Assembly: GCA_038087875.1 (NCBI GenBank)
Contig: CM075993.1
Location: 3,226,001-3,290,000 of the forward strand
Length of the DNA: 64,000 nucleotides
Reading direction: 5' to 3'
Source of the DNA: Malacoraja senta
Taxonomy: Eukaryota
Shown here: positions 11,079 through 62,900 of the stretch, in pieces
How positions within the stretch are numbered: the first letter of the stretch is position 1
Layout: each line of letters begins with the position of its first letter
Notes under the pieces: model-generated
What the model saw: only the letters and a program-made list of their open reading frames with translations
Told to the model about the DNA's origin: nothing
The model's database searches: none
Program-made: the position numbers and the translations under genes

Positions 11079-11556
11079 GACAGTGTGAGATGGGAAAGGT
11101 TTGAGTCTGAAGAAGGGTCTCAACCCTGAAACATCCTTCTCTCCAGAGATGCTGTCTGGCCCGCTGAGTTACTCTGGCTTTTTGTGTCTATCGAAGGTTT
11201 AATAGGATCCCGAGGGCCATTTTATTTCCACAAAGAATGTCTTTTTTTTACATTAACCCTAATGGGTATATGAACCGAGCTGCCAGAGGAGGTCATTGCG
11301 ACTTCAAAATGCATGAACACAAAAATCCCTAAAATTTGAAGGCATCCAAATGAACACTAGAGGGCCTCAACGCTACACACTTCAGATGTTAATTTTCCAA
11401 TTCAAAGTTAGAAAAGCTTGGAAGTCTTATAATGAGATTGCAATTCTTAAAGAACGAGGTGAGTAAGCAATCCTTACTTAGCCGCAGCGCCCTATTGCCG
11501 CCCATTTTGCGTGATCAATTGAAATATAGAGCATGGAAACATGCCCTTCGGCCCAT

Positions 11557-13383
11557 GAAGAGAGATTAGTTAAAACAAATGTAGGTCCCTTGCAGTCAGA
11601 AACAGGTGAATTGATCATGGGGAACAAGAATATGGCGGACCAGTTGAACAACTACTTTGGTTCAGTCTTCACTAAGGAAGACATAAATAATCTGCCGGAA
11701 ATAGCAGGGGGCCGCGGGTCAAAGGAGATGGAGGAACTGAGTGAAATCCAGGTTAGTCGGGAAGTGGTGTTGGGTAAATTGAATGGATTAAAGGCCGATA
11801 AATCACCAGGGCCAGATAGGCTGCATCCCAGAGTACTTAAGGAAGTAGCTCCAGAAATAGTGGATGCATTAGTGATAATTTTTCAAAACTCTTTAGATTC
11901 TGGAGTAGTTCCTGAGGATTGGAGGGTAGCAAACGTAACCCCACTTTTTAAGAAGGGAGGGAGAGAGAAAACGGGGAATTACAGACCAGTTAGTCTAACA
12001 TCGGTAGTGGGGAAACTGCTAGAGTCAGTTATTAAAGATGGGATAGCAGCACATTTGGAAAGTGGTGAAATCATTGGACAAAGTCAGCATGGATTTACGA
12101 AAGGTAAATCGTGTCTGACGAATCTTATAGAATTTTTCGAGGATGTAACTAGTAGAGTGGATAGGGGAGAACCAGTGGATGTGTTGTATCTGGACTTTCA
12201 GAAGGCTTTCGACAAGGTACCACATAAGAGATTAGGATACAAACTTAAATCACACGGTATTGGGGGTTCAGTAGTGATGTGGATAGAGAACTGGCTGGCA
12301 AACAGGAAGCAAAGAGTAGGAGTAAACGGGTCCTTTTCACAATGGCAGGCAGTGACTAGTGGGGTACCGCAAGGCTCAGTGCTGGGACCCCAGCTATTTA
12401 CAATTTATATTAATGATCTGGACGATGGAATTGAAAGCAACATCTCCAAGTTTGCGGATGACACTAAGCTGGGGGGCAGTGTTAGCTGTGAGGAGAATGC
12501 TAGGAGACTGCAAGGTGACTTGGATAGGCTGGGTGAGTGGGCAAATGTTTGGCAGATGCAGTATAATGTGGATAAATGTGAGATTATCCACTTTGGTGGC
12601 AAAAACGGGAAGGCAGACTATTATCTAAATGGTGGCCGATTAGGAAATGGGGAGATGCAGCGAGACCTGGGTGTCATGGTACACCAGTCATTGAAAGTAG
12701 GCATGCAGGTGCAGCAGGCAGTGAAGAAAGCGAATGGTATGTTGGCCTTCATAGCAAGAGGATTTGAGTATAGGAGCAGGGAGGTTCTACTGCAGTTGTA
12801 CAGGGTCTTGGTGAGACCACACCTGGAGTATTGCGTACAGTTTTGGTCTCCAAATCTGAGGAAGGACATTATAGCCATAGAGGGAGTGCAGAGAAGGTTC
12901 ACCAGACTGATTCCTGGGATGTCAGGACTTTCATATGAAGAAAGACTGGATAGACTTGGCTTATACTCGCTAGAATTTAGGAGATTGAGAGGGGATCTTA
13001 TAGAAACGTACAAATTTCTTATGGGGTTGGACAGGCTAGATGCAGGAAGATTGTTCCCGATGTTGGGGAAGTCCAGGACAAGGGGTCACAGCTTAAGGAT
13101 AAGGGGGAAATCCTTTAAGACCGAGATGAGGAAAAACTTTTTCACACAGAGAGTGGTGAATCTCTGGAACTCTCTGCTACAGAGGGTAGTTGAGGCCAGT
13201 TCATTGGCTATATTTAAGAGGGAGTTAGATGTGGCCCTTGTGGCTAAAGAGATCAGGGGGTATGGAGAGAAGGCAGGTACGGGATACTGAGTTGGATGAT
13301 CAGCCATGATCATATTGAATGGCGGTGCAGGCTCGAAGGGCCGAATGGCTTACTCCTGCACCTATTTTCTATGTATCTATGTA
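11557..13383 (+). mobile_element. Young 5'-truncated CR1 LINE (HER1-like) with uninterrupted RT domain (ORF to 13290)
   Basis: RT motifs KSPGPD, NYRPVSLTS, DFQKAFDKV, GVPQGSVLGP, KFADDTKL; endonuclease absent; 3'UTR ends in TCTATGT repeats; nested inside a minus-strand SINE. Confidence 0.97.
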
Positions 13384-14560: not shown

Positions 14561-17072
14561 CGAGAGTGTAGCGACAGGATGAAAAATTTGGATAGCATAG
14601 AACTAGTGCGAACGGGTGATTGATGGTCAGTGTGGACTTGGTGGGCCGAAGGGCCTGCTCCCACGCTGTATCTCTGAACTAAACAAAATGCCTTTACCCC
14701 AGTGGGAACAGATGGTTCCGTTGTTAGTCTGTATCTTTCATTTCCCGGCTCTGTCTGAAGAAGGGTCTCGGCCCGAAAAACATCACCTATTCCTTTTCTC
14801 CAGAGATGCTGCCTGACCCGCTGGGTTCCTCCAGTATTTTGTGTCCATCTATAATACAGCACAGGAGGAGACCCTGCAGCCCATGATAAATTGGAAGCGT
14901 TTATTTGACTGTAAAATCTTACCTTGATTAGTTGGTTGCCTTTGAATTAGAAAGAAGCCTCCCTGCTTCAAACAGTTTAACTTGGCGTTTCCAATAAAGA
15001 ATGGTTATACATTCATTCTGCTGCCATCTGGTGGGCACATTTGTAAAAAAACAGCCTTTCATAAATTTGGAGAGAATGAGGAGCAGGGAATGGGGGTGGG
15101 AGTTGGATGTGGTGAGTTGAACAGCAGTTTTCGAGCAAGATCATATGTGATAGGAGCAGAATTAGGCCATTCGGCCCATCAAGTCTATTCCGCCATTCAA
15201 TCATGGCTGATCTATCTCTCCCTCTCAACCCCATTCTCCTGCCTTCTCCCCATATACCCTGAACTAATCAAGAATCTACCCATCTCTGCCTTAAAGGTAG
15301 TTCACCTTCAGCTTAAAGGTGTTCAGCGAAACGATCGCCCAGTCTACTTTTTGATGAGATCCTAATCTCTGGAATTCCCTCCTCAAACCGTTCCATCTCT
15401 ACTGATCAGCACAGACCCTTCATCAGTCTGAAGAAGGGTCTCGACCTGAAACGTCGCCTATTCCTTCTCTCCATAGATGCTGCCTCACCCGCTGAGTTTC
15501 TCCAGCATTTTTGTCTACCTTTGATTTTTCCAGCATCTGCAGTTCTTTCTTAAACTTTTATATGGAGCGTTACTGTAATGAAGACAGAACAGGATGAAGT
15601 CCTTCAAAGCATTCTTTATTTAACTCTGCCATACCAATAACATACAAAAAATAAATGCAATTTAATAAAATGTAGTTAAGTCTATGTATTGCACAGACAC
15701 AATATTTAGTCCTTTATGCTTTGCAAGCATTTGCCTGTACGGTGAAACTTCAAATGTTTCAGAAACCATTTAGCAGAGTGCATTTTTGCAATTCATTCGA
15801 GCTTCCACAGAACACAACACACAGTTATCACATTCAATGTTCTTAAATATATCCACATCAATGTTCACAGAAATATCTGGTTGAACTAGTCTAGAGATTT
15901 TAAACTTCTATGTATACAAAATCTTGCTTGGACAATCTTGCAGGGTCTTTGACCCTGACTGCTTCTTCAAAGGGCAACATGGGAATGAAAAGTTTAAGAA
16001 GGAACTGCAGATGCTGGAAAATCGAAGGTGGACAAAAATGCTGGAGAAACTCAGCGGGTGAGGCAGCATCTATGGAGCGAAGGAAATAGGCTGCCACAGG
16101 TCTCGACCCGAAACGTCGCCTATTTCCTTCGCTCCATGGATGCTGCCTCACCCGCTGAGTTTCTCCAGCATTTTTGTCTACCTGGGAATGAAAAGAGACA
16201 CTTTTCTGCTGGAGTAACTCAGCGGGTCGGGCAGCATCTCTGGGGAACATGGATAGGCGACATTTTAGGTCGGAACCCTTCTTCAGACCCATCCCAAAAT
16301 GTCGCCTGTCCATGTCCTCTAGAGATACCTTCTGACCCGTTGAGTTACTCCAGCTCTATTTTTTTAAATGTAAACTAGCATCTGCAGTTCCTCATGTCTA
16401 CAAGATCATGAGAATGCCTTTTTATCTTAAGACTATCTTAGCAATCGCTCGCATTGCAGTAGATGTCAGCATTGCAAATTATGAACCGGCCTCATTTCCA
16501 AAAACTAATCCATCAAAATGCATGTTCCTCTTACTCCCATCTCTCTCCCCCTAAAAAAATGCCTTCAGTTAGTTTGGAACGGGCTGTGACCTTGAGCAAG
16601 GTCCACCACACAGCATTGGCAGCAATGAACCGATGATCAGGGACAACACTAGTCTAATTGAAGGCATCCTTTCAACCTCAAGATGACAAGCATATTTACC
16701 CAACTGGAAACTGGCACCAGTTCTAATCTCTCGATCACTCCTCTTCTCGTTAACTCACCTCCCATCTTTCTCAGGAAAAGTATCCCAAAATCACGACAGC
16801 ACCATATTTTAGTGTGTCAAGCACTCTGAACTTAACGGCGTGAACAGACTGCTGGTATAATCAGAGCGCTACACATCTTGACCTTGCATTCTCCACTAGA
16901 TGTGGTACAAATGCCACTGATACCAAGTGCTAAATAATCCAGCCGCTAAAAGCAACTGTGTATGAAGTGCAACACTGTTCTGTGCAAACAGTTCAGTCAA
17001 CCTGTGCAAAAAGCAAATGCTCAAAGCTTGGGTAACACATCTGCCGAACCGTAACGCATTTTTAATGGGTTA

Positions 17073-22600: not shown

Positions 22601-22758
22601 TTACTGCACAGTACAAGAGCTTTCCGCCTGGCAACAGGCACAGACTGTAGAGGTAAGAGGCTTGGGGGAATCAGGTCAAGATCTTCGTCGTCTGGGATTT
22701 CGTCCAGGTGATAGCCGTCTTTCAGGAGCTGACGGTTCAGGTCCTGATTCACTTGCTG
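22601..22758 (-). CDS. FAM219B: FAM219B exon 6 coding part (QQVNQDLNRQLLKDGYHLDEIPDDEDLDLIPP[K]PLTSTVCACCQAESSCTVQ*), one base missing at 22664-22668
   Basis: Invariant FAM219 core LDEIPDDEDLDLIPP; adding one C restores the Cys-rich tail and the CaaX-like CTVQ with stop TAA at 22603-22601. Confidence 0.93.
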
Positions 22759-23954
22759 CTGAAAGAAAAAGGGGCGCCTTTTTTTCTCCCCCCTGCCAAG
22801 CAAGACAATCCCACGCCCAACTGCACAGCACTCCTCTTATTATTTGGCACCCACCAAGTAATAAGCCAGAGATAGGCACACAAAGTGCTGGAGCAACTCA
22901 GCGGGTCGGGCAGCGTCTCTGGAGAACATGGATAGGAGACGTTCTGGTCGGGACCCCCTTCTTCGAAAAGCAGTCGTCTCCAGTGATGCTGCCTGAGCCG
23001 GTGAGTTACTCCAGCACTTTGTGTCGATCATTGGTACAAACCAGCATCTGCAGTTCCTTCTTATTACATTATTAAACGGTTAGCCAGATGGGAATCTGAA
23101 GGGCCAACAAGCCAATTACGGAACAAATAGAAGAGAGACACAAAAAGCTGGAGTCGCTCAGCGGGACAGGCAGCATCTCTGGAGAGAAGGAATGGTTGAC
23201 GTTTCGGGCTGAGACCCTAAACGTCACCTATTCCTTCTGAGCGACTTCAGCTTTTTGTGTCCATCTTCGGTTTAAACCAGCATCTGCCTCTCTTTCCTAA
23301 ATATAACAAATAGACTGAAGGAGCCACCAAGTGTTTTAATTCCACATAGAAAATTCTAATTTGTCTCCTTGTCAGTCTAATTTGTGTCCATGATTAGAAC
23401 CTAACGAAGCCCACTCTGCAGCCCTGCAAGAGATCGGATGGGCCAAATGGCCTTCTGTGCAGCAAGCAAGCATCAAAATACACAAAGGACAAGCGATACA
23501 CATACAAGCCAGGCAACTGAAGCATTCCAATTTTGCTACATGCGGAAACAGGGTTGGTATCTTTACTCACTGGTCCCTCAATATGTAACCACCAATGCCC
23601 AAGGTCTGAAACTTTCATTGAAGTCGTTTCACCCAAAAACCTTTGTGCCGACATTTTACTTTCTTGACACAGGATCTGGTTATTGTGGAACTCTTCGAAG
23701 GATGCAATTACTCACTGTCTTCAAACATTAAGTCCCAGCCCTGTACTCCAGAGGGTATAATATCTTTCATGGCATTTCCGGTGGAGAAAGATTGGGCTCA
23801 GAACCAAGGGCGATATGATGATCAGCTCTTTAGGCCAACGTCACCATGTCTTGCGCAGGAAGGGACCGCAGGTGCTGATTTAAACCGAAGATGGACACAA
23901 AATGCTGGAGTAACTCAGCGGGACGGGCAGCATCTCTGGAGAGAAGGAATGGGT

Positions 23955-25222: not shown

Positions 25223-25277
25223 CTCTGCAGAAGAATAGCCTGATGATGAATAATACTTGGATTCAAACTCGCCCTCA
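25223..25277 (-). CDS. FAM219B: FAM219B exon 5 (EGEFESKYYSSSGYSSAE)
   Basis: FAM219 motif SSGYSSAE; ttttccag / gtgagc; 55 nt, phase 2 to 0. Confidence 0.93.
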
Positions 25278-26120
25278 CTGGAAAATAACACAAAGAAACC
25301 AGTTTGTGATGCATGCGATTAAACCACAAGAAGAAATATTTCACAGAAACTTACTCTATATATAACTTCCCATAACATAAAATTTTAAACAGCAAAAGAT
25401 GGAACTTGCAAACATCAATTTCTCTGTGTTGGTTCATAAATAATAGGGGCAGAATTAGGCCATTCAACCCATCAATTCTACTCCACCATTCAATCATGGC
25501 TGATCTAACTCTCCCTCCTAGCACCGTTCTCCTGCCTTCACCCCATAACCCCTGACACCCGTACTAATCAAGACTTCTGCTGTAGAAATATCCATTGACC
25601 TGGCCTCCACAGCCTTCTGTGGCAACTAATTCCACAGATTCGCCACCCTCCGACTAAAGAAATTCCTCATCTCCTTCCTAAACACAATATACTGGAGGAA
25701 CTCAGCGGGTCAAGCAGCATCTCTGGAGAAAATATTTGGGTGATGTTTCGGGTCAGGATGCTTCCTCGAGCACGAGAGGAGTGATGGGAAGCCCACTGAT
25801 ACCAGCTTGATGCTGCTACTCTGTTCAAACTATTAGTGGACTTAAACAAGCAGAGGTGAAAGCGTTTTCATTGTGAAGGCTTTCAAAACCAACGTGAACC
25901 ATCATCGATAGAACAGTAGTCACTTAAACAATCATGTCTTCGTGAGACAGCAGAGGTGAAAGTCAGTGCCAAGATGCAAGACACTACTTTGGTACATATC
26001 TTTTCCATGCCTCGAGTTTGGAATCACAACTAACCCGTTTACAAACTCAATGACTATGTGCCACTCCACCACCAAATTCTAAATTACTGCTTCATCTATC
26101 CAACCTTTCCCTATTGTCTG

Positions 26121-26525: not shown

Positions 26526-26603
26526 CTGTCTGACTCCAAGGACACTAACGATTCATCCGGGTTTTGTTTCAAGGCAGAGTATCCTTTATTGAATTTTACT
26601 AGC
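26526..26603 (-). CDS. FAM219B: FAM219B exon 4 (LVKFNKGYSALKQNPDESLVSLESDS)
   Basis: VKFNKGY..L.Q.PDE.LVSL is FAM219B-like rather than FAM219A (VVPNKGY); tttatag / gtgag; 78 nt, phase 2 to 2. Confidence 0.93.
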
Positions 26604-26725
26604 CTATAAATGAAAGAAAAGGAATAAAGACATAATGGGTAAAACAAACTAAATGTTATTAAAACCAGCACTTCCCCTGTTGACTTCTTTGGGTCTTTTA
26701 CTTGAATTTGCTCAATTGTGAGTTA

Positions 26726-27211
26726 AGGGCCTGCCCCACTTGGCCGTCATTTGCGCCTCATTTACGCGTCATATGTAAAATAGGTCGACGCGTCGTGATG
26801 CGCGACGTCGTGCACAAATCACGCGTCAACACAGCCGTCTGGAGCGCGTGACGTCATTAGAACACCCTGCGGCGCGCGGAAAGACATTGACGCAAAACGT
26901 AAGGACGTGACGCACGATGACGTAACCATGCGTCACCACGCGATACATGTGAGACGTCGGGACGCCAGTGTACGACGCCAATGCGTCAGCGTGCATACCC
27001 AATGCTTCAGCGTGCGTACGCGATACGCAGGTGGCGCGCGAGGATTTTGTTCCTGTACTAAATCCTGGAGTACCGCGTGCCACCGCATACGATTCCACGG
27101 CTTACGCATGCGCACCCAACGCATGCGCACCCAACACGTCACGACGTGTCGACCTAATTTACATATAACACGTAAATGAGGCGCAAATGACAGCCAAGTG
27201 GGACAGGTCCT
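26726..27211. mobile_element. PIF/Harbinger-like MITE, subfamily C (CpG-rich)
   Basis: Long imperfect TIR AGGGCCTGCCCCACTTGGCCGTCATTTGCGCCTCATTTACG; TTA on both sides (26723-25, 27212-14); many internal TGACGC/GCGTCA motifs. Confidence 0.85.
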
Positions 27212-28730
27212 TTAAGAGACATGAGCGTTTTGTCATATGTACTGAAACGGAGCAATGGACTTCTTGTCTCTTCTCCCCACTACCTTCAGGTAGAATGTAC
27301 AGGAGCCTGAAGACTGCAACGACCAGGTTCAGGAATAGCTACTTCCCCACAACCACTTGGCTCGGACAAAACTCTGAACATTAATAGCCCATTATCTGTT
27401 ATTTGCACTTTATCAATTTATTTATTCATGTGTGTATATATTTATAGAAGGGTATATGGACACACTGATCTGTTTTGTAGTCAATGCCTACTATGTTCTG
27501 TTGTGCTGAAGCAAAGCAAGAATTTCATTGTCCTATCAGGGACAATAAACTCACTTGAACTTGAACTTGTGGGGAAACAAGGAATTGCAGATGCTGGTTA
27601 CACGAATGGACACAAAATGCTGGAATAACTCAGCGGGAACAAGGAAACTGGAGCACCCGGAGAAAACCCACGCAGGTCACGGGGAGAACGTAACACAGCC
27701 AAATAGCAAAAATATCAAAAATTATAACCAATAATCAATACTAGTCCAAATGACTTGGGACATAATGCTGAAAGAGAAAAATATGTCCTTCCATCCAATT
27801 TGAAGATTTGTAGGTTAATTTGCCTCTGTAAATAGCCTCTTGTGTGTCTAAGAGACTGCAGATGCTGGTTTAAACTGAAGATATAGACACTAAAAACTGG
27901 AGTAACTCAACATGTCAGGCAAGAAAAGCAATAGGTGACATTTCGGGTCTCGAGAGATGCTGTCTGACCCGCTGAGTTACTCCAGCTTTTCGTGTCTACC
28001 TTGTGTGTAGGTGGACTATTTTCTTTGGTCTATTGTCTAACGGGTGATCGATGGTCGGCATGGACTTGGTGGGCCGAGGAGCCTGTTGTATCGGCCAAAT
28101 AATGGCACAAGGGAGATGATCATGTACGGTATGAAGGAAGGAAAAGAGACAACAGGATGAGCGAGGACACCAAAGATATTAATATATCCCTGCAGCTATT
28201 TCAGCCCACAAGATTTTACCGCATAGAGTATGCTGGGTGAGGAGGCATGGGAGTAGGTAAGTGGGGAGCATTGGGCAACTTGTTTTGCTGAAGTGCCTCC
28301 TCTAATTCTGTCTAACAATTTCAGAACCGACCAGACTTGCCTGCAATTGCGGCAGACGCCAACAAACAGGCTTAGATACTGTGCAGGGAGGAACTGCAGA
28401 TGCTGCTTCACACCGAAGATGGACGTAAAATGCTGGAGTAACTCAGCGGGACAGGCAGCACCTCTGGAGAGAAGCAATGGGTGACGTTTCGGGTTGAGAC
28501 CCGTCTTTCTGAAGAAGGGTCTCGACCCAAAATGACACTCATTCCTTCTCTCAAGAAATGCTGTCAAGCTGAGATACTGAGTCACCCTGCGATGCGACGC
28601 TTTCTACCAAATGCTTTTTTTTTTTTATGGAGGAGATAGTTTTCATTCCCATTAAATTGATTTCCTAAAATAATTCTCCTCTGAGTCACAGTAGCTTAAG
28701 GGCGTGTTGGAACAGAGCAGGATGACTAAC

Positions 28731-28821
28731 CTTTTAGTTCCAGACTTGGGCTGGTGTAAGACTGGACCTCCAGCCATTGCTTTCTTCTTGAGAACCCTCT
28801 TGGCCAATTCTCGATGCTTCT
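28731..28821 (-). CDS. FAM219B: FAM219B exon 3 (QKHRELAKRVLKKKAMAGGPVLHQPKSGTKR)
   Basis: Similar to FAM219B KHRDLAKAVLRRKGM; ttttgcag / gttagt; 91 nt, phase 1 to 2. Confidence 0.9.
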
Positions 28822-31800
28822 CTGCAAAAGGGAAAAGCAGGACAAAATTCAACTCGGACAGTGAGTGCCACGGTGGTGTAAGCTGGTGGAGCTGCTGCCT
28901 CACAGCGCCAGCGACCCAGGTTCGCTCCCTGGAACGTCCTCCCAGTGACTACATTTCAGTTGAGCTTTCTTTGTCACATGTGCCGAGGTACAGTGAAAAT
29001 CTTTTGTTCGGCAGAAAGACAACACACGATGACAATCGAGCCGTTCACATTGGACAGTTCGGAGTAGAGATTTAAAAGTGCGGAGCTGGGAAACATGGGT
29101 TTCGTCCGGGTGCTCCCGTTTCCTCCCACATCCCAAAGATGTGCGGGATTGTAGATTAATTTGTACTTCTAACTTGCACAGAAGCAAAGGTAGACAAAAA
29201 AGCTGGAGAAACTCAGCGGGTGAGGCAGCATCTATGGAGCCACGGAATGATATGGAGCGAAGGCATCTATGGAGCAGAAGCAAATGTCACTGGGCTATAA
29301 CCTTTCCTGCTGCTGGGATTTTCAAGAGTAAACTCTGGGCAGTGGAGGGATGACTTCCCTTGTACATTTACACATGATTAGAAAACCATGTCCACAGTCA
29401 CCACCCAAGACAGCAGCATTGCCCAGCACCAAAGTCCATTCACAGAGGACATGGTAAGCGTGCCTTCGTAATGAATAGCTTTCAAAGTCTTGGGGCAAAA
29501 TGAGGTAACAATGCAAACTACTGCCTGGAGCTATCCGCAGATGCTGCATGGCCTGCAGAGTTCATCTGGAGGATAGAATAGGAAGCAACTGCAGATGCCG
29601 ATTTAAACTGAAGATTGACACAAAATGCTGGGGTAACTCAGCGGGACATGCAGCATCTCTGGAGAGAAGGAATGGGTGACGTTTCGGGTCGAGACCCTTT
29701 TTCAGATGCTGAGTAACTCCAGCATTTTATCTGTCTTCATCTTGAGGATTGTTTTATGCTCCAGATTCCAGCAATCTCGTGTCCCCAACTCATTATGTCC
29801 AATAAAAGGGACAAATATCCCAATAGATCTCTCGTTCCCACCTAACTACACCCTATCCTTTTAATGCCAAATTCATGATAATTAAATGATAAGGTTGTAG
29901 GAAATTGCACTGTATATCCATCCAGGTGAATGGTCCAAGGGGTCTCGACTAGAAACGTCACCTATTCCTTCTCTCCGGAGATGCTGCCTGTCCCACTGAG
30001 TTACTCCAGCGTTTTGTGTCTATCTGTATGGGTTGGGCATCTGTATAAAATAAAAGTCGTCCCGTATGTGTGCAGGGAGTGGATGAGAAAGTGGGATTAA
30101 ATTGAACTGATGCGAGACAAATCCTGGCCTTGCCAACTGTGTCTCGATGTCAAAATCAAAATCCACTTGAGCAGCTTGGAAAACATCAATTTAAACTTCA
30201 CAATAAAAATAAATAACTTGTATGTTCTCTTCCATTGCTCGTCACGACTATACCAAAGAACCAAGAATGGATGCAAAACGCTGGAGTAACTCAGCGGGTC
30301 AGACAGCATCTCTGGAGAGAAGGAATATATGACGTTTCGGGTCGACACCCTTCTTCAGAACAGTCTGAAGAAGTGTCTCGACCCAAAATGTCGCCTATTC
30401 CTTTTCTCCAGAGATGATGTCTGACCCGCTGAGTTACTCGAGCGTTTTGTGGCTATCTTCGGTTTAAACCAGCATCTGCAGTTCCATCCTACACATAGGC
30501 AATCAAGTCAAGTTAGCTCGAGTGAATAATCTTACTTCGCCAAAGGGTGCTGAGTTACTCCAGCTTTTTCTGTCTATCCAGGTTAAACCAGCATCTGCAG
30601 TTCCTTCCTACGTAAACCAAGGAACTATAGAAGAGTTTAAGCTTGTGCAGTGCAAGTGTTCAATCAATGATCTCTCAACTCCAGTAATGAAGGAAATAAT
30701 TCCTTTTGAAGTTTCAAGACAGATTTCCAATTGCTGCAATATATTTTCCCATGTTGGTTTGCTCTCTTTTATTGAACAGTTTAATCACCAAAGTTTCCTC
30801 TCAGATTAATTGCCCCAAAGCCGATGCTGTTGATCTTTTTCAAACTAATGCGTTTGAACAACCAGTAAAGGCAGCAATTTATCACCTCACAACAACTTGA
30901 GAATCTGATCCAGAGTGCAATCTTTTCATTCTTAAATTGCAGCTTTCGGCACAGATTTACTTCTTCCACGCACGCTGGGAAAGCAATATAGTTTACACTG
31001 AGAAAGAGCAAACTGAAGAAGAGACGCAAGGAACTGCAGATGCTGGAACCTTGCGTAGAACACAGTCTAAACATTTCTACTCGGATACTTGCACCGATGA
31101 CCGAGTTATGTAGAATTCTGACTTTTCCTTGTGCAAGAAATATCGTGAAACACAATGTTTGTATTCGGATTCAGTCCGAATTTGGTAAAGTCACAACCCC
31201 AGACCACTCCGAAGGACAACTGCAACAATATTACCTCAAGATTCTTCTGGCACAAGTCCCAAGGACTGGGAGAGGAGCCATTTTAAGCTGTTATTTTAAC
31301 AGGGTACAGAACAATGATTCATACTGATTCACATGATCATGTGATGATGAAGTTCTGAGACCATAATAACAAACAATCTCACTTGATAATTTGAGTTACT
31401 CACAGGGCCAATTCGTACTTTGCATTTGGCAAGCTTTCCGATCACTATGAGGATTGGAGAGAGAATTTTAAAAGAGACTAGACCAAGGGGGGCCCGTTGG
31501 GTCCCGTCCCCTCAACACGCGGTTGTGGGGGGGGGGGGGGGGGCTGCGGCATCACACACACACTAACCACCCCCCAAACACACAGGGGAGGGAGGGGGGT
31601 AGGGGAGGGGAGATGGGGGGCGGAGGGAGAGCGAGAAGGGGGGAAGGGGGAGAGAGTGGGGAGGGGGCAGAGAGTGGGGGAGGGAGGTGGAGAAGTTTAA
31701 AGAGATGTGAAGAGCCAATTTAGCAGATGAAGAGGGTGAAAGATTGCAACCTGTTTTGACGAATGCAAACAACCCGGTCGGTGTGCACAGTCAAATAAGA

Positions 31801-35411: not shown

Positions 35412-35511
35412 GTAATTTGAGATGTATTGATGATGTTCTGGTGCTGGTCGGCAGTTTCTTCTTCTCATTCATCTTGAAGGCAGTCTCATTCTTCCAGCTT
35501 TTGGTGTAGCC
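35412..35511 (-). CDS. FAM219B: FAM219B exon 2 (GYTKSWKNETAFKMNEKKKLPTSTRTSSIHLKL)
   Basis: Pyrimidine-rich acceptor ...gtttcaag and gtgagt donor; 100 nt, phase 0 to 1; splicing to exon 3 gives the FAM219 motif IHLKLQKHRELA. Confidence 0.8.
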
Positions 35512-39765: not shown

Positions 39766-41562
39766 CAATTTTAATCATATTCAACACCTAAATCTTTCAC
39801 AGTGGTGAAAAGGGCCTTGGTGTAATGATCAGAGAAGAGCTAAACAAAGTGACCAAAGAGCACCTACAGACAAATAGATGGTGAGTTACCCCTCAGGTTC
39901 CTTTTAAATCTTTCACCTCTCACCTTAAACCAATGTCCTCAGCTTCTTGATTCCCCTACGCCATTCCCCACATGAGTTTATACAACTCCTTAAGATCACC
40001 CTCCTTTTCCTGCACTCCAGGGAATAAATTCTTTACTTGCCCAACGTCTCCCTAACCTCCTCTGCCTCAGTGGAGGCCAGTTCTCTGGATACTTTCAAAA
40101 GAGAGCTAGACAGGGCTCTTAAAGATAGCAGAGTCAGGGGATATGGGGAGAATGCCGGAACGGGGTACTGATTGGGGATGATCAGCCATGATCACAATGA
40201 ATGGTGGTGCTGGCTCGAAGGGCCAAATGCCTACTCCTGCACCTATTGTCTATTGCCTAAAGCTCAGGCCCTCAAGTTCTGGCAACATCTTCGTAAATCT
40301 TCCACGCACTCTTTCCAGTTTAACAATGTTTCCGACAGCAGGGTGACCAAAACTGAACACAATATTCCTAATGTGGCCTCACCAACTTCTTGTAGAACTG
40401 TAACATAACATTCCAACTTCCATACTCAATACCCTGACTGATGAAACTCAAGTTTAGCATCAATGAACACCCATCTATTGACATAACCCATCTTCTCTGC
40501 TACACTTCTCAACTTTGCTCACGATAAGATTGTGTCTGTTACCCACTTGCAGTGGGCAACTTTATGGTCATCAAGGATACCAGACAGTCCTTAACTGATC
40601 CATCATGCATGCATGCCGTCAGAATAACAGTGGGTGAGATAGTGGTGCAGCTTATAGAGCTGCTGCCTCTCAGCGTATAGACCCAAGTTCGATCCTGACC
40701 ACTGGTGCTGTCTGTGGGAAATTGCACATTCTTCCAGTGACCCATGCATTTCCTCTGGTTGATCGGTTTCCCGCCCTTATTGAGAAGGGAGTGAATGAGA
40801 AAGTGGGATAACATAAAACTAGTGTGACTAATGGTAGACGTGGACTCTAAACCGTGGATAGACTAAATAATCTTGGCCAAGTGCCATCTTTAGCATGTAT
40901 CAATGGAATCAACATATGCAGGGGATTGTAAACCTCTCCCATAGAAAGCAGGACACAAAATCTTGGAGAAACAAAACTGAAAGATAGCTGGAGAAATAAG
41001 CACCTGCAGATGTTGGTTTAATCAAAAGGACACAAAATGCTGGAGTAACTCAACGGGTCAGGCAGCATCTCTGGAGAGCAAGAATGGGTGATGTTTTGGG
41101 TTGAGGCCCTTCTTCTACCTGTCTTGCTGAATTACTCCAGCATTATGTGTCCATCTTCAGTGGAAACCAGTATCTGCAGTCCCATCCTCTACATCTGCCT
41201 CCCCCCTCAAAATTCCTTCTGCCACATTAACCCTTGTGAAGCATGCCGCCAAATCCCCTCAAAACCTGGAGTCGGGCCCAACCCCTCTCCAGACCTAAAG
41301 GGGGCACCGCAAACCACCAAAACCTGGAGGGAGGTGTGTGCCCCCAAACAGCCCTCCCCTCCCCTCCTCCAACCCTCCAACTCCCCCCCTCCCACCACCC
41401 TTCCAACCCCTCCTCCCCCCCCTCCCCTCCTCAAACGTGTTCCCCCAAACGCCAAGATTGTGAGGTGGGGGGGGGGGGGGATGTGTGAGACCCCACACCC
41501 AGCCCAGAACCGGGAGGAGCGCCCCAACGTGAGTGTCCCTGTCCCCCCGGCGCCGCCATTAC

Positions 41563-41625
41563 CGAGGGCCCGGGTTGCTGCGGCAACGCGACGTCCACCG
41601 GCCGCTGAAGCTCCGCCGCCTCCAT
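41563..41625 (-). CDS. FAM219B: FAM219B exon 1 (MEAAELQRPVDVALPQQPGPS)
   Basis: gcgATGG Kozak-like start in a CpG island; gtaatg donor; 63 nt, phase 0, fits exon 2; the poorly conserved N-terminus is assigned by position and phase. Confidence 0.7.
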
Positions 41626-41639
41626 CGCATCACATCGCC

Positions 41640-42280
41640 CCGCGCTCGGCACTTCCGGTCAGCTGACCGCGGCAGCGGCTCCGCCCCTTGGTGACGTGAA
41701 ATAGACCCCGCCCCTGGTGACGTAAAATAGAGACCCCGCCCCCTAGTGACGTGTCATATAGACCCCGCCCCCGTGTGACGTAAATAGAGACCCCTCCTCC
41801 TAGTGACGTAACCTAAAGACCCCGCCCCATGATGAGGTTAACTGGAGACCCCGCCCCCCTGGTGACGTAAAATAGAGACCTCGCCCCCTAGTGAGGTATC
41901 CTATAGACCCCGCCCCCTGGTGACGTAAAAGAGACTCCGCCCCTGGCGACGTGAACTAGAGACCCAGCCCCCTGGAGACGTAAAATAGAGACCCCGCCCC
42001 CTGGTGACGTATGATGGACACAACGACCGCCCTCCCAGAAACGTCATTATGTCCCCGCCCTTCATGACGCGTGATGGAATCCCCGCCCCTCGGTGACGTT
42101 TACATGAAATCCCGCCCTTCTGTGATGTGTACGTGAAACCACGCCCCTCTCTGTGACGTGTCTTACAGTCCCCGCCCCCCCCCGGTGATGTATACATGTC
42201 CCCGCCCCCCGATGACGTCGCGGAGCTCGGCCCCCGCCCCGTTGACGTGTATTGGAGACCCCGCCCCTCTGTGACGACCC
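41640..42280 (-). promoter_or_regulatory. FAM219B promoter: ETS-type site (CACTTCCGG 41650) plus tandem array of ~21 GC-box/CRE-like units (~29 bp)
   Basis: Repeating gaCCCCGCCCC-N3-5-gTGACGT unit starting ~55 bp upstream of the ATG; CpG-rich. Confidence 0.75.
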
Positions 42281-45200
42281 ACGCATTCCCCCCCCCTCCC
42301 GGGTCCTAGCGCCCACCCTCCGGCTCAGCATCAGCTCAGCTCCCCCGGGTCCTAGCGCCCACCCTCTCTCTACACCCAACTCTCTCATCTCCTCCACCCT
42401 CTGGAGAGAAGATACAGGAGCTGAAAACCTCATATGTCCTCTACGGGTGTCAGAGGTCATGGGGAGGTGGCAGGAGAATGGGACTAGAAGGGAGTAATAG
42501 ATCAGCCGTGACTGAATGGCGGAATAGACCTGATGGGCCGAATGGCCTAATTCTGCTCCTATCCCTTACGAACATGATTTAAGAACAGCTTCTTCCCCAC
42601 TGCTATCAGACTCCTGAACCCATCACACCTTTCACATCGATGATAGACACAAAATGCTGGAGTAACTGTCTGAAGTGATTGATCTTCAGAAGGGTCTCGA
42701 CCAGAGATGCTGCCTGTCCTGCTGAGTTACTCCAGCATTGTGTGTCTATGTTGAATGAGAATTTGTTTCTTTCTGCCATCTAGTGCCCAGTTGAAGAACA
42801 GCGTCAGCAGAATCACTCAACATGGACAAAGACCCTTCGGCCCCACTGAGTTTGTGTCAACCATCAAACGTCCATTTACATTAACCCATGTTTACACCAA
42901 CTCTATGTTCTACTCTGTCCATATTCTCCTCCACGCCCCCAATATTTATCACACGCCCCCTCATGCAACAGACAAGATTTGTTATATTTCATTATCTCAT
43001 CGTTTCATTAAGAATGTTTTTTATTGTATATGACCCAAAATTCTCACTTGCAGCAGCACAACAGATATGTAGACAAAGTACTGTGTAAACACTATCATAA
43101 GCAACATAAAGAAGTTCACTATATCAAAAAACAATCAATAATAGTGGAAAGACAAAAGCAATGCCCCTGAAATCTAAGGTAGACAAAAATGCTGGAGAAA
43201 CTCAGCGGGTGAGGCAGCATTTATGGAGCGAAGGAAATCCTCACCCAAATCCTCATCCTCATCCAGCATTTTTGTCTACCTTCGATTTTCCAGCATCTGC
43301 AGTTCTTTCTTAAACAACCCCTCAAATCTATGTAGTTCAGAGTTTATTTGAGGTTGTGGTGTTTAATAGCCTGATGGCTGTAAGGAAGAAGCTGTTCCTG
43401 AACCTGGACGTTACAGTTTTCAGGCTCCTGTACCTTCTTCCTGATGGCAGGGGTGAAGTGAGAGCGTGGTCAGGGTGGTGTGGGTCTCTGATGATGCTGG
43501 CTGCCTTTTTGGCTCCTGTAGACTCCTGCAGATCCCTTCGATGGTGGGGAGGTCAGTACCCATGGACTGGGCAGTGTTCATCGCCTTTTGCAAGTCTTCT
43601 TCGTATGAAGTCGGACATCGGCACAATGAACGGCAGATGCTGGAGCCTTGAGCAAGAAACATAAAGTGCCGGAGTAACTTAGCAGTTCAGGCAGCACCAC
43701 TGGAGAACATGGATAGGCGACGATTCGGGTCTGGATCCTTATTCGGAGATGCTACCTGACCATCTGGGCTACTCCAGCACTTGTGTTTTTCCCTCCACTA
43801 AGGATGGGACCCAACCTAAAACGTCATATGCCCTTTCCCTCCACAGATGCTGCCTGGCCCGCTGAGTTTATCCAGCAGCTTTTTTTAATCACGATTCCAC
43901 ATCTGCGGTTTCTTGCATTTTCCGCAGTAATACACCGAAGTTTAGACACACCATTTGTCATGTTTTGTTTTGCTTTGAAGTAAATATGGTGAAATAAGTT
44001 GCAGTCCCACTCATCTGTTCTCATTCAGTAATCCCAGAGTGACTCACTATATTGGCTGGGACATTCAACAGAGTTAAAAAGTAATTTTGGAAATTCCCTG
44101 CCATTTTTCACATTAAGCACACAGACTGACTCTGTATCCTAACCACTGGACAACCAAATCCAACCTTGTCACCTCCCTACCTCCGTCTCCTCCTTTAGGT
44201 GCAGTGTCATGGACTCATACAATGTGGAAACAGGCCCTTTGGTCCAACTTGTCCCATCTCTACACTAATCCCACCTGCCCGCGTTTGGCCCAAATCCCTC
44301 TAAACCTGTCCTATCCATGCACCACTGCCATTGGGAAGGAGGTACAGGAGCCTGAAACCTGTAATGTTCTGGTTCAGGGACAGCTTCTTCCTTACAGCCA
44401 TCAGGCGATTAAACACTACAACCTCATATAAGCTCTGAGCTACATAGACTATTATTGTTATAATTAATATTATTGCACTATTATTTGTTTTTTGAGTATG
44501 TGTGTATATGTATGTGTGTATATATATGTATGTATATTAAGAATCAAGAGTTTATTGTCATGTGTCCCTGATAGGACAATGAAATTCTTGCTTTGCTTCA
44601 GCACAACAGAACATAGTAGGAATTGACTACAAAACAGATCAGTGTGTCCATATACCATTATATACGTAAATACACACATGAATAAATAAACGGATAAAGT
44701 GCAAATAACAGATAATGGACTATTAATGTTCAGAGTTTTGTCCGAGCCAAGTTTAATAGCCTGATAGCTGTGGGGAAGCAGCTATTCCTGAACCTGGTCG
44801 TTGCAGTCTTCAGGCTCAAATATATATGTGTACTTGTGAGAATGTGTTTATTTACACACACTGAACTTTTTTTCTCTCTCTCATTTATTATATTGTTTAT
44901 AGTGTACTATGCCTACATATTCTGTTGTGCTGCTGCAAGTAAGAATTTCATTGTTCTATCTGGGACACAGGGCAATAAAACACTCGTGAATCTCATCCTG
45001 TCCAATTATTTCTCAAATGTTGCAATAGTCCCGGCCTCAACTACCTCCTCTGGCAGCTCGTTCCAAACACTCATTACCCTTTATGTGAAAAATTTACTCC
45101 TCGGGTTTTTATTAAATATTTCCCCCTCAATCTTAAACCTTGAGTCCTCTGGTCCTCGATTGCCCTACTCAGGGCAAGAGACTCCGTGCGTCTACCCGAT

Positions 45201-61964: not shown

Positions 61965-62900
61965 ACCGGAATTACGTCACCCGCCCCGCACTAGATGTCA
62001 CTTCTTACCCTCTCCCCTTCCCTCCCGCCCCGCACTGACGTCACCCGACAACCACCTCCGGATGTCACTTCCTCCCTTTCCGTCACCCGCCCCGCACTGA
62101 CGTCACCCGACAACCACCTCCGGATGTCACTTCCCTCCCTTTCCGTCACCCGCCCCGCACTGACGTCACCCGACAACCACCTCCTGATGTCACTTCCCGC
62201 CCTTTCCCTCTCCCGCCCCGCACTGACGTCACCCGACCACCTCCCCCTGATGTCACTTCCCTCCCTTTCCCTCTCCCGCCCCGCACTGACGTCACCGACC
62301 ACCTCCCCCTGATGTCACTTCCCGCCCTTTCCCTCTCCCGCCCCGCACTGACGTCATCGCTCCCGCCGGCAGGATGTCATTTCCGCCCCCTTCCCCTCTC
62401 CCGCCCCGCACTGACGTCATCAGCCAACCTCCTCCTGATGTCTGAAGAAGGGTTTCGGCCCGAAACGTTGCCTATTTCCTTCGCTCCATAGATGCTGCTG
62501 CTGCACCCGCTGAGTTTCTCCAGCATTTTTGTCTACCTTCCTCCTGATGTCACTTCCCTCCCTTTCCCTCACCCGCCCCGCACTGACGTCTTCCGACAAC
62601 CTCCCCCCATGATGTCACTTCCCTCCCCCCGCCCCGCACTGACGTCATCCACCCGCCGGCAAGGACGTCACTTCCGCCCCCTTCCCCTCTCCCGCCCCGC
62701 ACTGACGTCAGCCCTCCCCTTCCCGCCGGCAAGGTTGTCACTTCCGCCCCCTGTCCCTCTCCCGCCCCGCACTGACGTCAACCCTCCCCCTCCCCTGACA
62801 CGGACGTCATTTCCGCCCCTCTGTCTCTCTCCCCACACACACACACACGTTGGCAACCGAAGACACTTCCGCCCCTCTCTCAAGCCCCCGCTTCCGGCAC
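61965..62900 (-). promoter_or_regulatory. COX5A promoter: tandem array of ~11-12 units (~62-63 bp), each with GC-box, palindromic CRE and ETS-core motif
   Basis: Unit CCCGCCCCGCACTGACGTCA...GATGTCACTTCC; TGACGTCA at 62036, 62098, 62161, 62224, 62287, 62349, 62412, 62640, 62703, 62773. Confidence 0.78.
62441..62538 (+). mobile_element. PLE-derived fragment inserted in the COX5A promoter array
   Basis: TCTGAAGAAGGGTTTCGGCCCGAAACGTTG...GTCTACC flanked by duplicated CCTCCTGATGTC. Confidence 0.85.

Follow-up and report, generated by a model that had tools for sequence, protein, structure and literature searches.

Introduction

Tandem repeats that carry transcription-factor sites are known from promoters, reportedly including the 28-bp repeats of TYMS, the 30-bp repeats of MAOA and the Sp1 repeats of ALOX5. 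Among viral enhancers, repeats of 21 bp are known from HTLV-1, where they contain a CRE between GC-rich flanks, and from SV40, where they consist of GC boxes. The locus described here, a tandem array upstream of FAM219B in a 64-kb window (the whole stretch of DNA that was analysed), resembles the promoter VNTRs in that units of 10–70 bp lie directly upstream of a gene, each with factor motifs, and in that the arrangement of copies differs between lineages. It departs from them in that its 21 units are strongly diverged, with just two motifs surviving, and in that two neighbouring genes carry unrelated arrays with one motif pair at one spacing. With the HTLV-1 and SV40 repeats it shares CRE cores and/or GC boxes repeated upstream of a start site, but it belongs to a cellular promoter and has far more, and more diverged, copies.

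Regulatory modules born from local sequence duplication have been described in the fly, where they show cryptic pairwise similarity and often diverge to sites for other factors (PMC3188502). At FAM219B, too, local duplication may have supplied the sites and point mutation may then have modified them; unlike the fly modules, they form an overt array of a two-site module in which the sites are kept. Human proximal promoters contain SP1, CRE, ETS and ETS–CRE motifs (PMC3464117), the same vocabulary that is found here, including the ETS/CRE-like halves of a second array upstream of COX5A. Unlike the present arrays, the human promoters of that study are single copies, repeat-containing promoters having been removed. 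By analogy, the FAM219B array may work in the manner of known promoter minisatellites and duplication-born site clusters. A literature search whose scope excluded most subscription papers returned no description of such arrays in cartilaginous fishes, and the words 'tandem' and 'minisatellite' do not occur in the main text of the skate genome paper (PMC10115646), which does describe ATAC-seq, H3K4me3 and methylation data for skate.

Overall organization of the FAM219B array

FAM219B (Pfam PF15260) and COX5A (Pfam PF02284) are both encoded on the minus strand of the window. A skate FAM219B-like protein can be aligned with six coding exons, which makes a skate or a close relative the probable source of the DNA; when the last of these exons served as the query, most of the 120 proteins listed, out of 709 matches in all, bore the name FAM219B. 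The first coding exon is followed by a phase-0 GT donor at 41562, which is in phase with exon 2 at 35511. The coordinates of the features are collected in Table 1.

Table 1. Features of the FAM219B and COX5A promoter regions (window positions).
Feature	Position	Strand	Remarks
FAM219B first coding exon	41563..41625	-	21 codons; 78% identity over 23 aligned residues
Other five FAM219B coding exons	about 35412-35511, 28724-28822, 26528-26605, 25223-25279, 22601-22761	-	Match to skate FAM219B-like protein
Single ETS-type site between array and ATG	41650..41659	-	Contains CCGGAAGT
FAM219B array	41679..42277		599 bp
Proximal units 1-12	41679..42010		More alike; spacer identity 0.70 among units 2-12
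CTCF 15-bp core, one mismatch, unit 3	41735..41749	-	Core of PMC8629902; also 41909-41923 and 41993-42007
Distal units 13-21	42011..42277		Spacers nearly unrelated (0.39); motif matches 124/141
Promoter array upstream of COX5A (ATG about 61862, minus strand)	61973..62823		11 full units and a truncated first unit
Short interspersed repeat inside COX5A array	62443..62538		13-bp target-site duplication

The array consists of 21 head-to-tail units of ~29 bp each (modal length 29 bp) and starts 54 bp upstream of the FAM219B ATG. This agrees with its placement directly upstream of exon 1 by the first-pass annotation, provided that no further, non-coding exon lies upstream. Each unit comprises a spacer (about 10 nt), a GC box, a linker (about 3 nt) and a half-CRE; on the transcribed (minus) strand the CRE comes first and the G-rich GC box second, towards the gene. 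The ~29-bp period proposed earlier is confirmed by motif-blind autocorrelation, which has its maximum at lag 29 (0.52 versus 0.27 expected); the distal part alone gives 0.45 at this lag and 0.46 at lag 89. TRF calls are limited to 41681–42011 (11.6 copies) and 42074–42149. There is no further copy of the array within the 64-kb window.

The number of units agrees with the first-pass annotation, but its description of them as CCCCGCCCC-N3-5-GTGACGT was too tight, as the exact pattern occurs in only six of the 21. CCGCCC is intact in 17 units and TGACG in 14, the plus-strand TGACG being absent from the remaining seven; in one of these, unit 13, the plus-strand half-CRE is lost and a TGACG lies on the other strand at 42042. 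In 13 of the 21 units, the T of TGAC lies 8 nt from the G of the GC box. The most frequent 8-mer at the half site is TGACGTAA (five units), and the full CRE, TGACGTCA, is found in none of the 21.

Mean pairwise identities of spacer, GC box and CRE are 0.70, 0.90 and 0.88 among proximal units, 0.39, 0.85 and 0.74 among distal units, and 0.40, 0.87 and 0.81 between the two groups. The proximal units, earlier called homogeneous, are indeed more alike than the distal ones but are not homogeneous, with 1–10 changes between one another. The claim that distal spacers have diverged while both motifs were kept likewise stands in part: the spacers and the overall motif matches agree with it (Table 1), but both cores are intact in just five of nine distal units (and in six of 11 proximal units, units 2–12).

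Motif conservation

Since cutting the units by their motifs would be circular, conservation was scored by position-blind wraparound alignment to unit 12. Over the other 20 units, motif positions matched in 277 of 300 cases and non-motif positions in 186 of 279, the excess at motif positions that the first-pass annotation had led one to expect from a per-position alignment. In the distal units the corresponding figures are 124 of 141 for the motifs and 62 of 128 for spacer and linker, and for A/T bases alone 26 of 30 and 34 of 82. A distal excess of this size, whether for all bases or for A/T alone, was produced by 0 of 150 neutral simulations under each of three models (one with uniform rates and two GC-biased), all of which copy whole units, without partial-tract gene conversion or slippage in C runs. 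The excess is weaker in the proximal units (139 of 150 versus 109 of 138, unit 12 excluded) and was equalled there by none of 150 uniform simulations and by six and three of 150 GC-biased ones. To take shared history into account, parsimony steps were counted on a tree of units 2–21, and 21 of 71 fall in the 15 motif columns out of 29; no simulation of 300 was as low at each of three scales. As a control for post hoc choice, the null was also allowed the most favourable cyclic shift, and one simulation of 300 was then as low.

Within the motifs, the whole C-rich box is kept and not its CpG alone (167 of 180), and conservation within the CRE is lowest at the C of its CpG (16 of 20). The linker between the motifs varies, with 21 of 37 distal positions matched, which argues that the two motifs are kept separately and not as one block. 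These alignments and simulations support a stronger constraint on motif positions than on spacers, the main loophole being partial-tract conversion or C-run slippage. Selection on binding sites, as the first-pass annotation suggested, accordingly draws support from the excess over the neutral models and from the tree test, with less from the proximal units.

CpG content and methylation

CpG islands are longer than 200 bp, with a GC content above 50% and a CpG observed/expected ratio above 0.6. At 599 bp, GC 0.60 and a ratio of 0.92 the array falls in this class, the background ratio of the whole window being itself 0.54; the exon 1 region has GC 0.72 and a ratio of 1.0. The CpG of the GC box is kept in 19 of 21 units and that of the CRE in 17 of 21, with two TG changes. 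Protection from methylation-driven decay, offered earlier as a cause of motif retention, does not suffice: the A/T bases of the distal motifs are kept too, the C of the CRE CpG is less well kept than the other CRE positions, and hypomethylation, which removes the hypermutability of CpG, would not slow changes at T and A and is thus not the whole explanation. It may nevertheless contribute. CG methylation blocks the binding of CREB (PMC3464117), so that function of the array would require an unmethylated state.

The array could also be a neutral GC-rich minisatellite in a CpG island, in which the motifs, being part of promoter DNA, are merely copied along, short-tract conversion or mispairing anchored on the C-rich core holds that core uniform, and hypomethylation spares the CpGs. 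The CpG ratio of 0.92 fits such an origin, as does the G-rich strand, with G4Hunter scores of at least 1.2 in 19% of the scanned windows; the turnover of the array between organisms and the near-invariance of the COX5A block, both described below, would follow from it as well. On the other hand, retention of motif A/T bases is predicted neither by GC bias nor by hypomethylation, the FAM219B linker varies, and two unrelated backbones have the same spacing. We consider neutral copying unlikely as the explanation.

A G-quadruplex was rejected as an account of the array: the canonical pattern has no match in it, and TGACGT would be left unexplained.

Comparison with a second sample and related organisms

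Comparison contigs were obtained from four of 14 listed runs and represent a second sample of the source organism and three further organisms (B, C and D). The second sample covers 41534–41754 with no differences and 41934–42295 with no substitutions and one gap, the segment 41755–41933 lying outside its cover. Organisms B and C are each represented by a single contig that runs through the exon 1 region, where it differs at 14 (B) or 18 (C) of about 200 letters, to 41681 and then straight into array-type units. The continuing units best fit 41882–41951 in B and 41882–41958 in C, with six and eight other letters and an uncertain placement in the repeat; relative to the window, about 200 bp of the proximal part (the length of seven units) is skipped in both. 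The contig of organism D reaches 41698, through unit 1, with a loose end that resembles the next spacer.

On these alignments the unit type predates the splits among the organisms and its arrangement differs by ~200 bp, through either a gain in the lineage of the window or a loss in the others; within the array, the cover in B, C and D is of proximal units. A difference in arrangement between organisms implies that the array turns over. The proximal units differ from one another (1–10 changes) at least as much as the species do in exon 1. Regarding the related loci to which the first-pass annotation had pointed, the unit type is indeed present next to exon 1 in B, C and D, but the between-species substitutions listed inside the array number only seven (two in motif cores and five outside), too few for a test of constraint. 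In organisms C and D, G>T at 41922 gives TTACGT in one unit. The single ETS-type site between the array and the ATG has no substitution listed in the contigs of B, C and D; it contains the 8-mer that ranks first among the ETS motifs of Table S1 (PMC3464117).

In one run of organism D, records are short, depth at this locus is high and a loose end reads as a Tn5 adapter. An ATAC-type library would give this, but so would ordinary tagmentation, and it is not counted as evidence.

A second array upstream of COX5A and the shared spacing

The promoter array upstream of COX5A lies 20 kb from that of FAM219B and is composed of 11 full units of 56–73 bp (one of them interrupted) and a truncated first unit, with periods of 63/70 bp. 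The short interspersed repeat inside it has further copies in the window, with identities of up to 95%. Each unit contains a near-invariant 20-nt block with a GC box and a full CRE, together with an ETS/CRE-like half, one of which reads GCGGAAGTGACGTCC. The overlapping arrangement CGGAAGTGACG, an ETS–CRE composite, is present in one COX5A unit and nearly so in several, and in none of the 21 FAM219B units. For ten of the 11 full units, the repeat-interrupted unit and the truncated first unit being left out, one of 35 parsimony steps falls in the 20 motif columns, and no stretch of 20 columns in any of 300 simulations held so few steps. The block is near-invariant including its linker, as block conversion would give. 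All 11 blocks also carry a CG at gap 3.

The composite CCGCCC-N5-TGACG occurs 19 times in the 64 kb (eight times in the FAM219B array and 11 times in the COX5A array) versus 0.01 expected, always in the same orientation relative to the gene. The two arrays thus have the same order and orientation of GC box and CRE and the same 8-nt gap. Their backbones are unrelated, with no blastn match between them at E < 0.01 and a longest common word of 12 nt that is C-rich. The first-pass annotation had called the FAM219B array independent, which is true of its backbone but not of the order, orientation and spacing of its motifs.

That two adjacent genes have unrelated arrays with the same pair at the same distance suggests a spacing rule and not an accident; a gap match between only two arrays could be due to chance, at roughly 1 in 20 to 1 in 60 by our own estimate. 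Table S1 of PMC3464117 lists the most promoter-localized split 8-mers of human promoters. All seven CpG-CRE rows among the 20 rows of its N5–30 column fit a CG 8 nt before TGAC, two of the seven also fit a gap of 6, and three distinct 4-mer contexts are represented. In the human table the flanking CG stands within GCGC, CGCG or GGCG and not just within an oriented GC box, and the single CpG-CRE row of the 4-bp column corresponds, by our own reading, to a 3-nt gap. The authors themselves state that pairs at 5–30 bp co-occur at many distances and not at one fixed distance. The 8-nt gap in the human table is best taken as a hint and not as a rule.

If both arrays descended from a single dispersed seed that carried the GC-box/CRE pair, such as a piece of promoter borne by a transposon, the shared spacing would be a matter of ancestry and not of binding geometry. 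Such descent would account for the same order, strand and gap in both arrays; the flank just past the distal end of the FAM219B array (42298–42366), which contains a 23-bp direct repeat spaced at 46 bp, also matches contigs from organisms C and D whose own flanks are unlike, and it may be a dispersed element. Descent from a seed is nevertheless quite improbable in our estimation, given the lack of blastn similarity, the short C-rich common word, the different linkers and spacers of the two arrays and the occurrence of the same gap in the human promoter statistics of PMC3464117.

Candidate readers of the array

The 8-nt gap bears on a further possibility, namely a proximal array made up chiefly of CTCF sites that overlap the GC box and half-CRE, with a role as insulator or loop anchor. 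A scan with a 14-bp sequence that we take to be the CTCF consensus gave six matches in the window (0.85 expected), three of them in units of the array. The same three of the 21 units match the 15-bp core of PMC8629902 at one mismatch (none exactly), and in these units such a core requires an 8-nt gap. The other 18 units, the great majority, have no match at this threshold, however, and the window as a whole has a background of 30 one-mismatch matches (0.47 per kb). Positions important to CTCF would fall in the linker, which is one of the most poorly conserved parts of the unit, and the COX5A block has the same gap without being a CTCF core. A predominantly CTCF-binding array is on these grounds very improbable.

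The array might also be functional but read by proteins other than SP and CREB/ATF factors, such as E4F1 or PAR/C-EBP-type bZIPs, which we assume to be candidate readers of the half site, or a fixed-distance CpG reader. The frequency of TGACGTAA at the half site (5/21), the TTACGT of organisms C and D and the varied CG contexts of the human table (PMC3464117) are all compatible with other readers, to which we give only a slender chance, since the whole C-rich box is kept and not the CpG alone.

Proposed origin and function

The reading that we favour, with a probability of about 0.65, is that the FAM219B array is a housekeeping promoter that arose when a module of SP/KLF and CREB/ATF sites was amplified in tandem, and that purifying selection acts on its motifs. 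The array has the structure of a promoter VNTR (21 units with a period of 29, directly upstream of the first coding exon) and is a homotypic cluster of both motif types, with copies beyond chance (CCGCCC in 17 of 21 units, TGACG in 14 of 21 and eight copies of the composite). The putative module would consist of a GC box (SP/KLF-type) and a half-CRE (CREB/ATF-type), with TGAC 8 nt past the GC-box CpG. Tandem amplification of one such module at a TATA-less CpG-rich promoter would build the array, and slippage or unequal exchange would then add, remove and reshuffle units. Purifying selection would clear changes from both motifs and leave the spacer and linker to drift, and the many copies might provide additive or redundant occupancy that keeps the promoter open and active. 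SP/KLF and CREB/ATF proteins are assigned as the probable readers from motif identity and general knowledge, and selection as the cause, the start site and any influence on transcription or methylation are likewise inferred. It is hard to see how selection would maintain every one of 21 redundant copies, which counts against this explanation.

More broadly, skates, and perhaps batoids, might build housekeeping promoters genome-wide from a fixed-spacing GC-box/CRE module with an independent backbone for each gene. Both promoters recognized in the window fit this, but they are two neighbouring genes, and we regard the generalization as tentative and rather doubtful. If it is true, nature would have provided in these arrays a series of multiplexed mutagenesis experiments, from which a CpG-N8-TGAC spacing rule valid across vertebrates could be read. 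Each array holds many mutated copies of one module in one place and so reveals which bases matter. Should such arrays be common in skates, the preferred SP/CpG-CRE geometry would become directly testable, as would the building and upkeep of CpG-island promoters in a repeat-rich genome; should they be rare, the present case would be a well-supported but local curiosity.

A scan for a two-unit pattern gave no matches in viral contigs and 22 loci in metagenomes, none of them like the FAM219B array and most of them apparently unrelated GC-rich short-period repeats. One promoter-like metagenome locus (L003, 1392–1547, minus strand), which is no independent evidence since the pattern itself selected it, has two copies of GC box plus full CRE at the same 8-nt gap. 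After them come repeated motifs that we presume to be YY1-like, upstream of what appears to be an intron-containing AlkB-like gene.

Other features of the window

The last coding exon of FAM219B has a frame change in a C run (22663–22666) relative to all four compared proteins; this is probably a homopolymer assembly error and is a warning for the C-run lengths of the array. Outside the arrays, an exact CTCF core is located at 15020–15034 and a one-mismatch match at 42773–42786. The first coding exon contains a palindrome (41574–41587) that resembles what we take to be an RFX X-box, a likeness that survives two synonymous changes in organisms B, C and D. A CpG-rich element of ~485 bp in a FAM219B intron (26727–27211), bounded by long terminal inverted repeats and flanked on either side by TTAA, looks like a MITE, and a 586-codon open frame at 11530–13287 presumably resembles a LINE reverse transcriptase.
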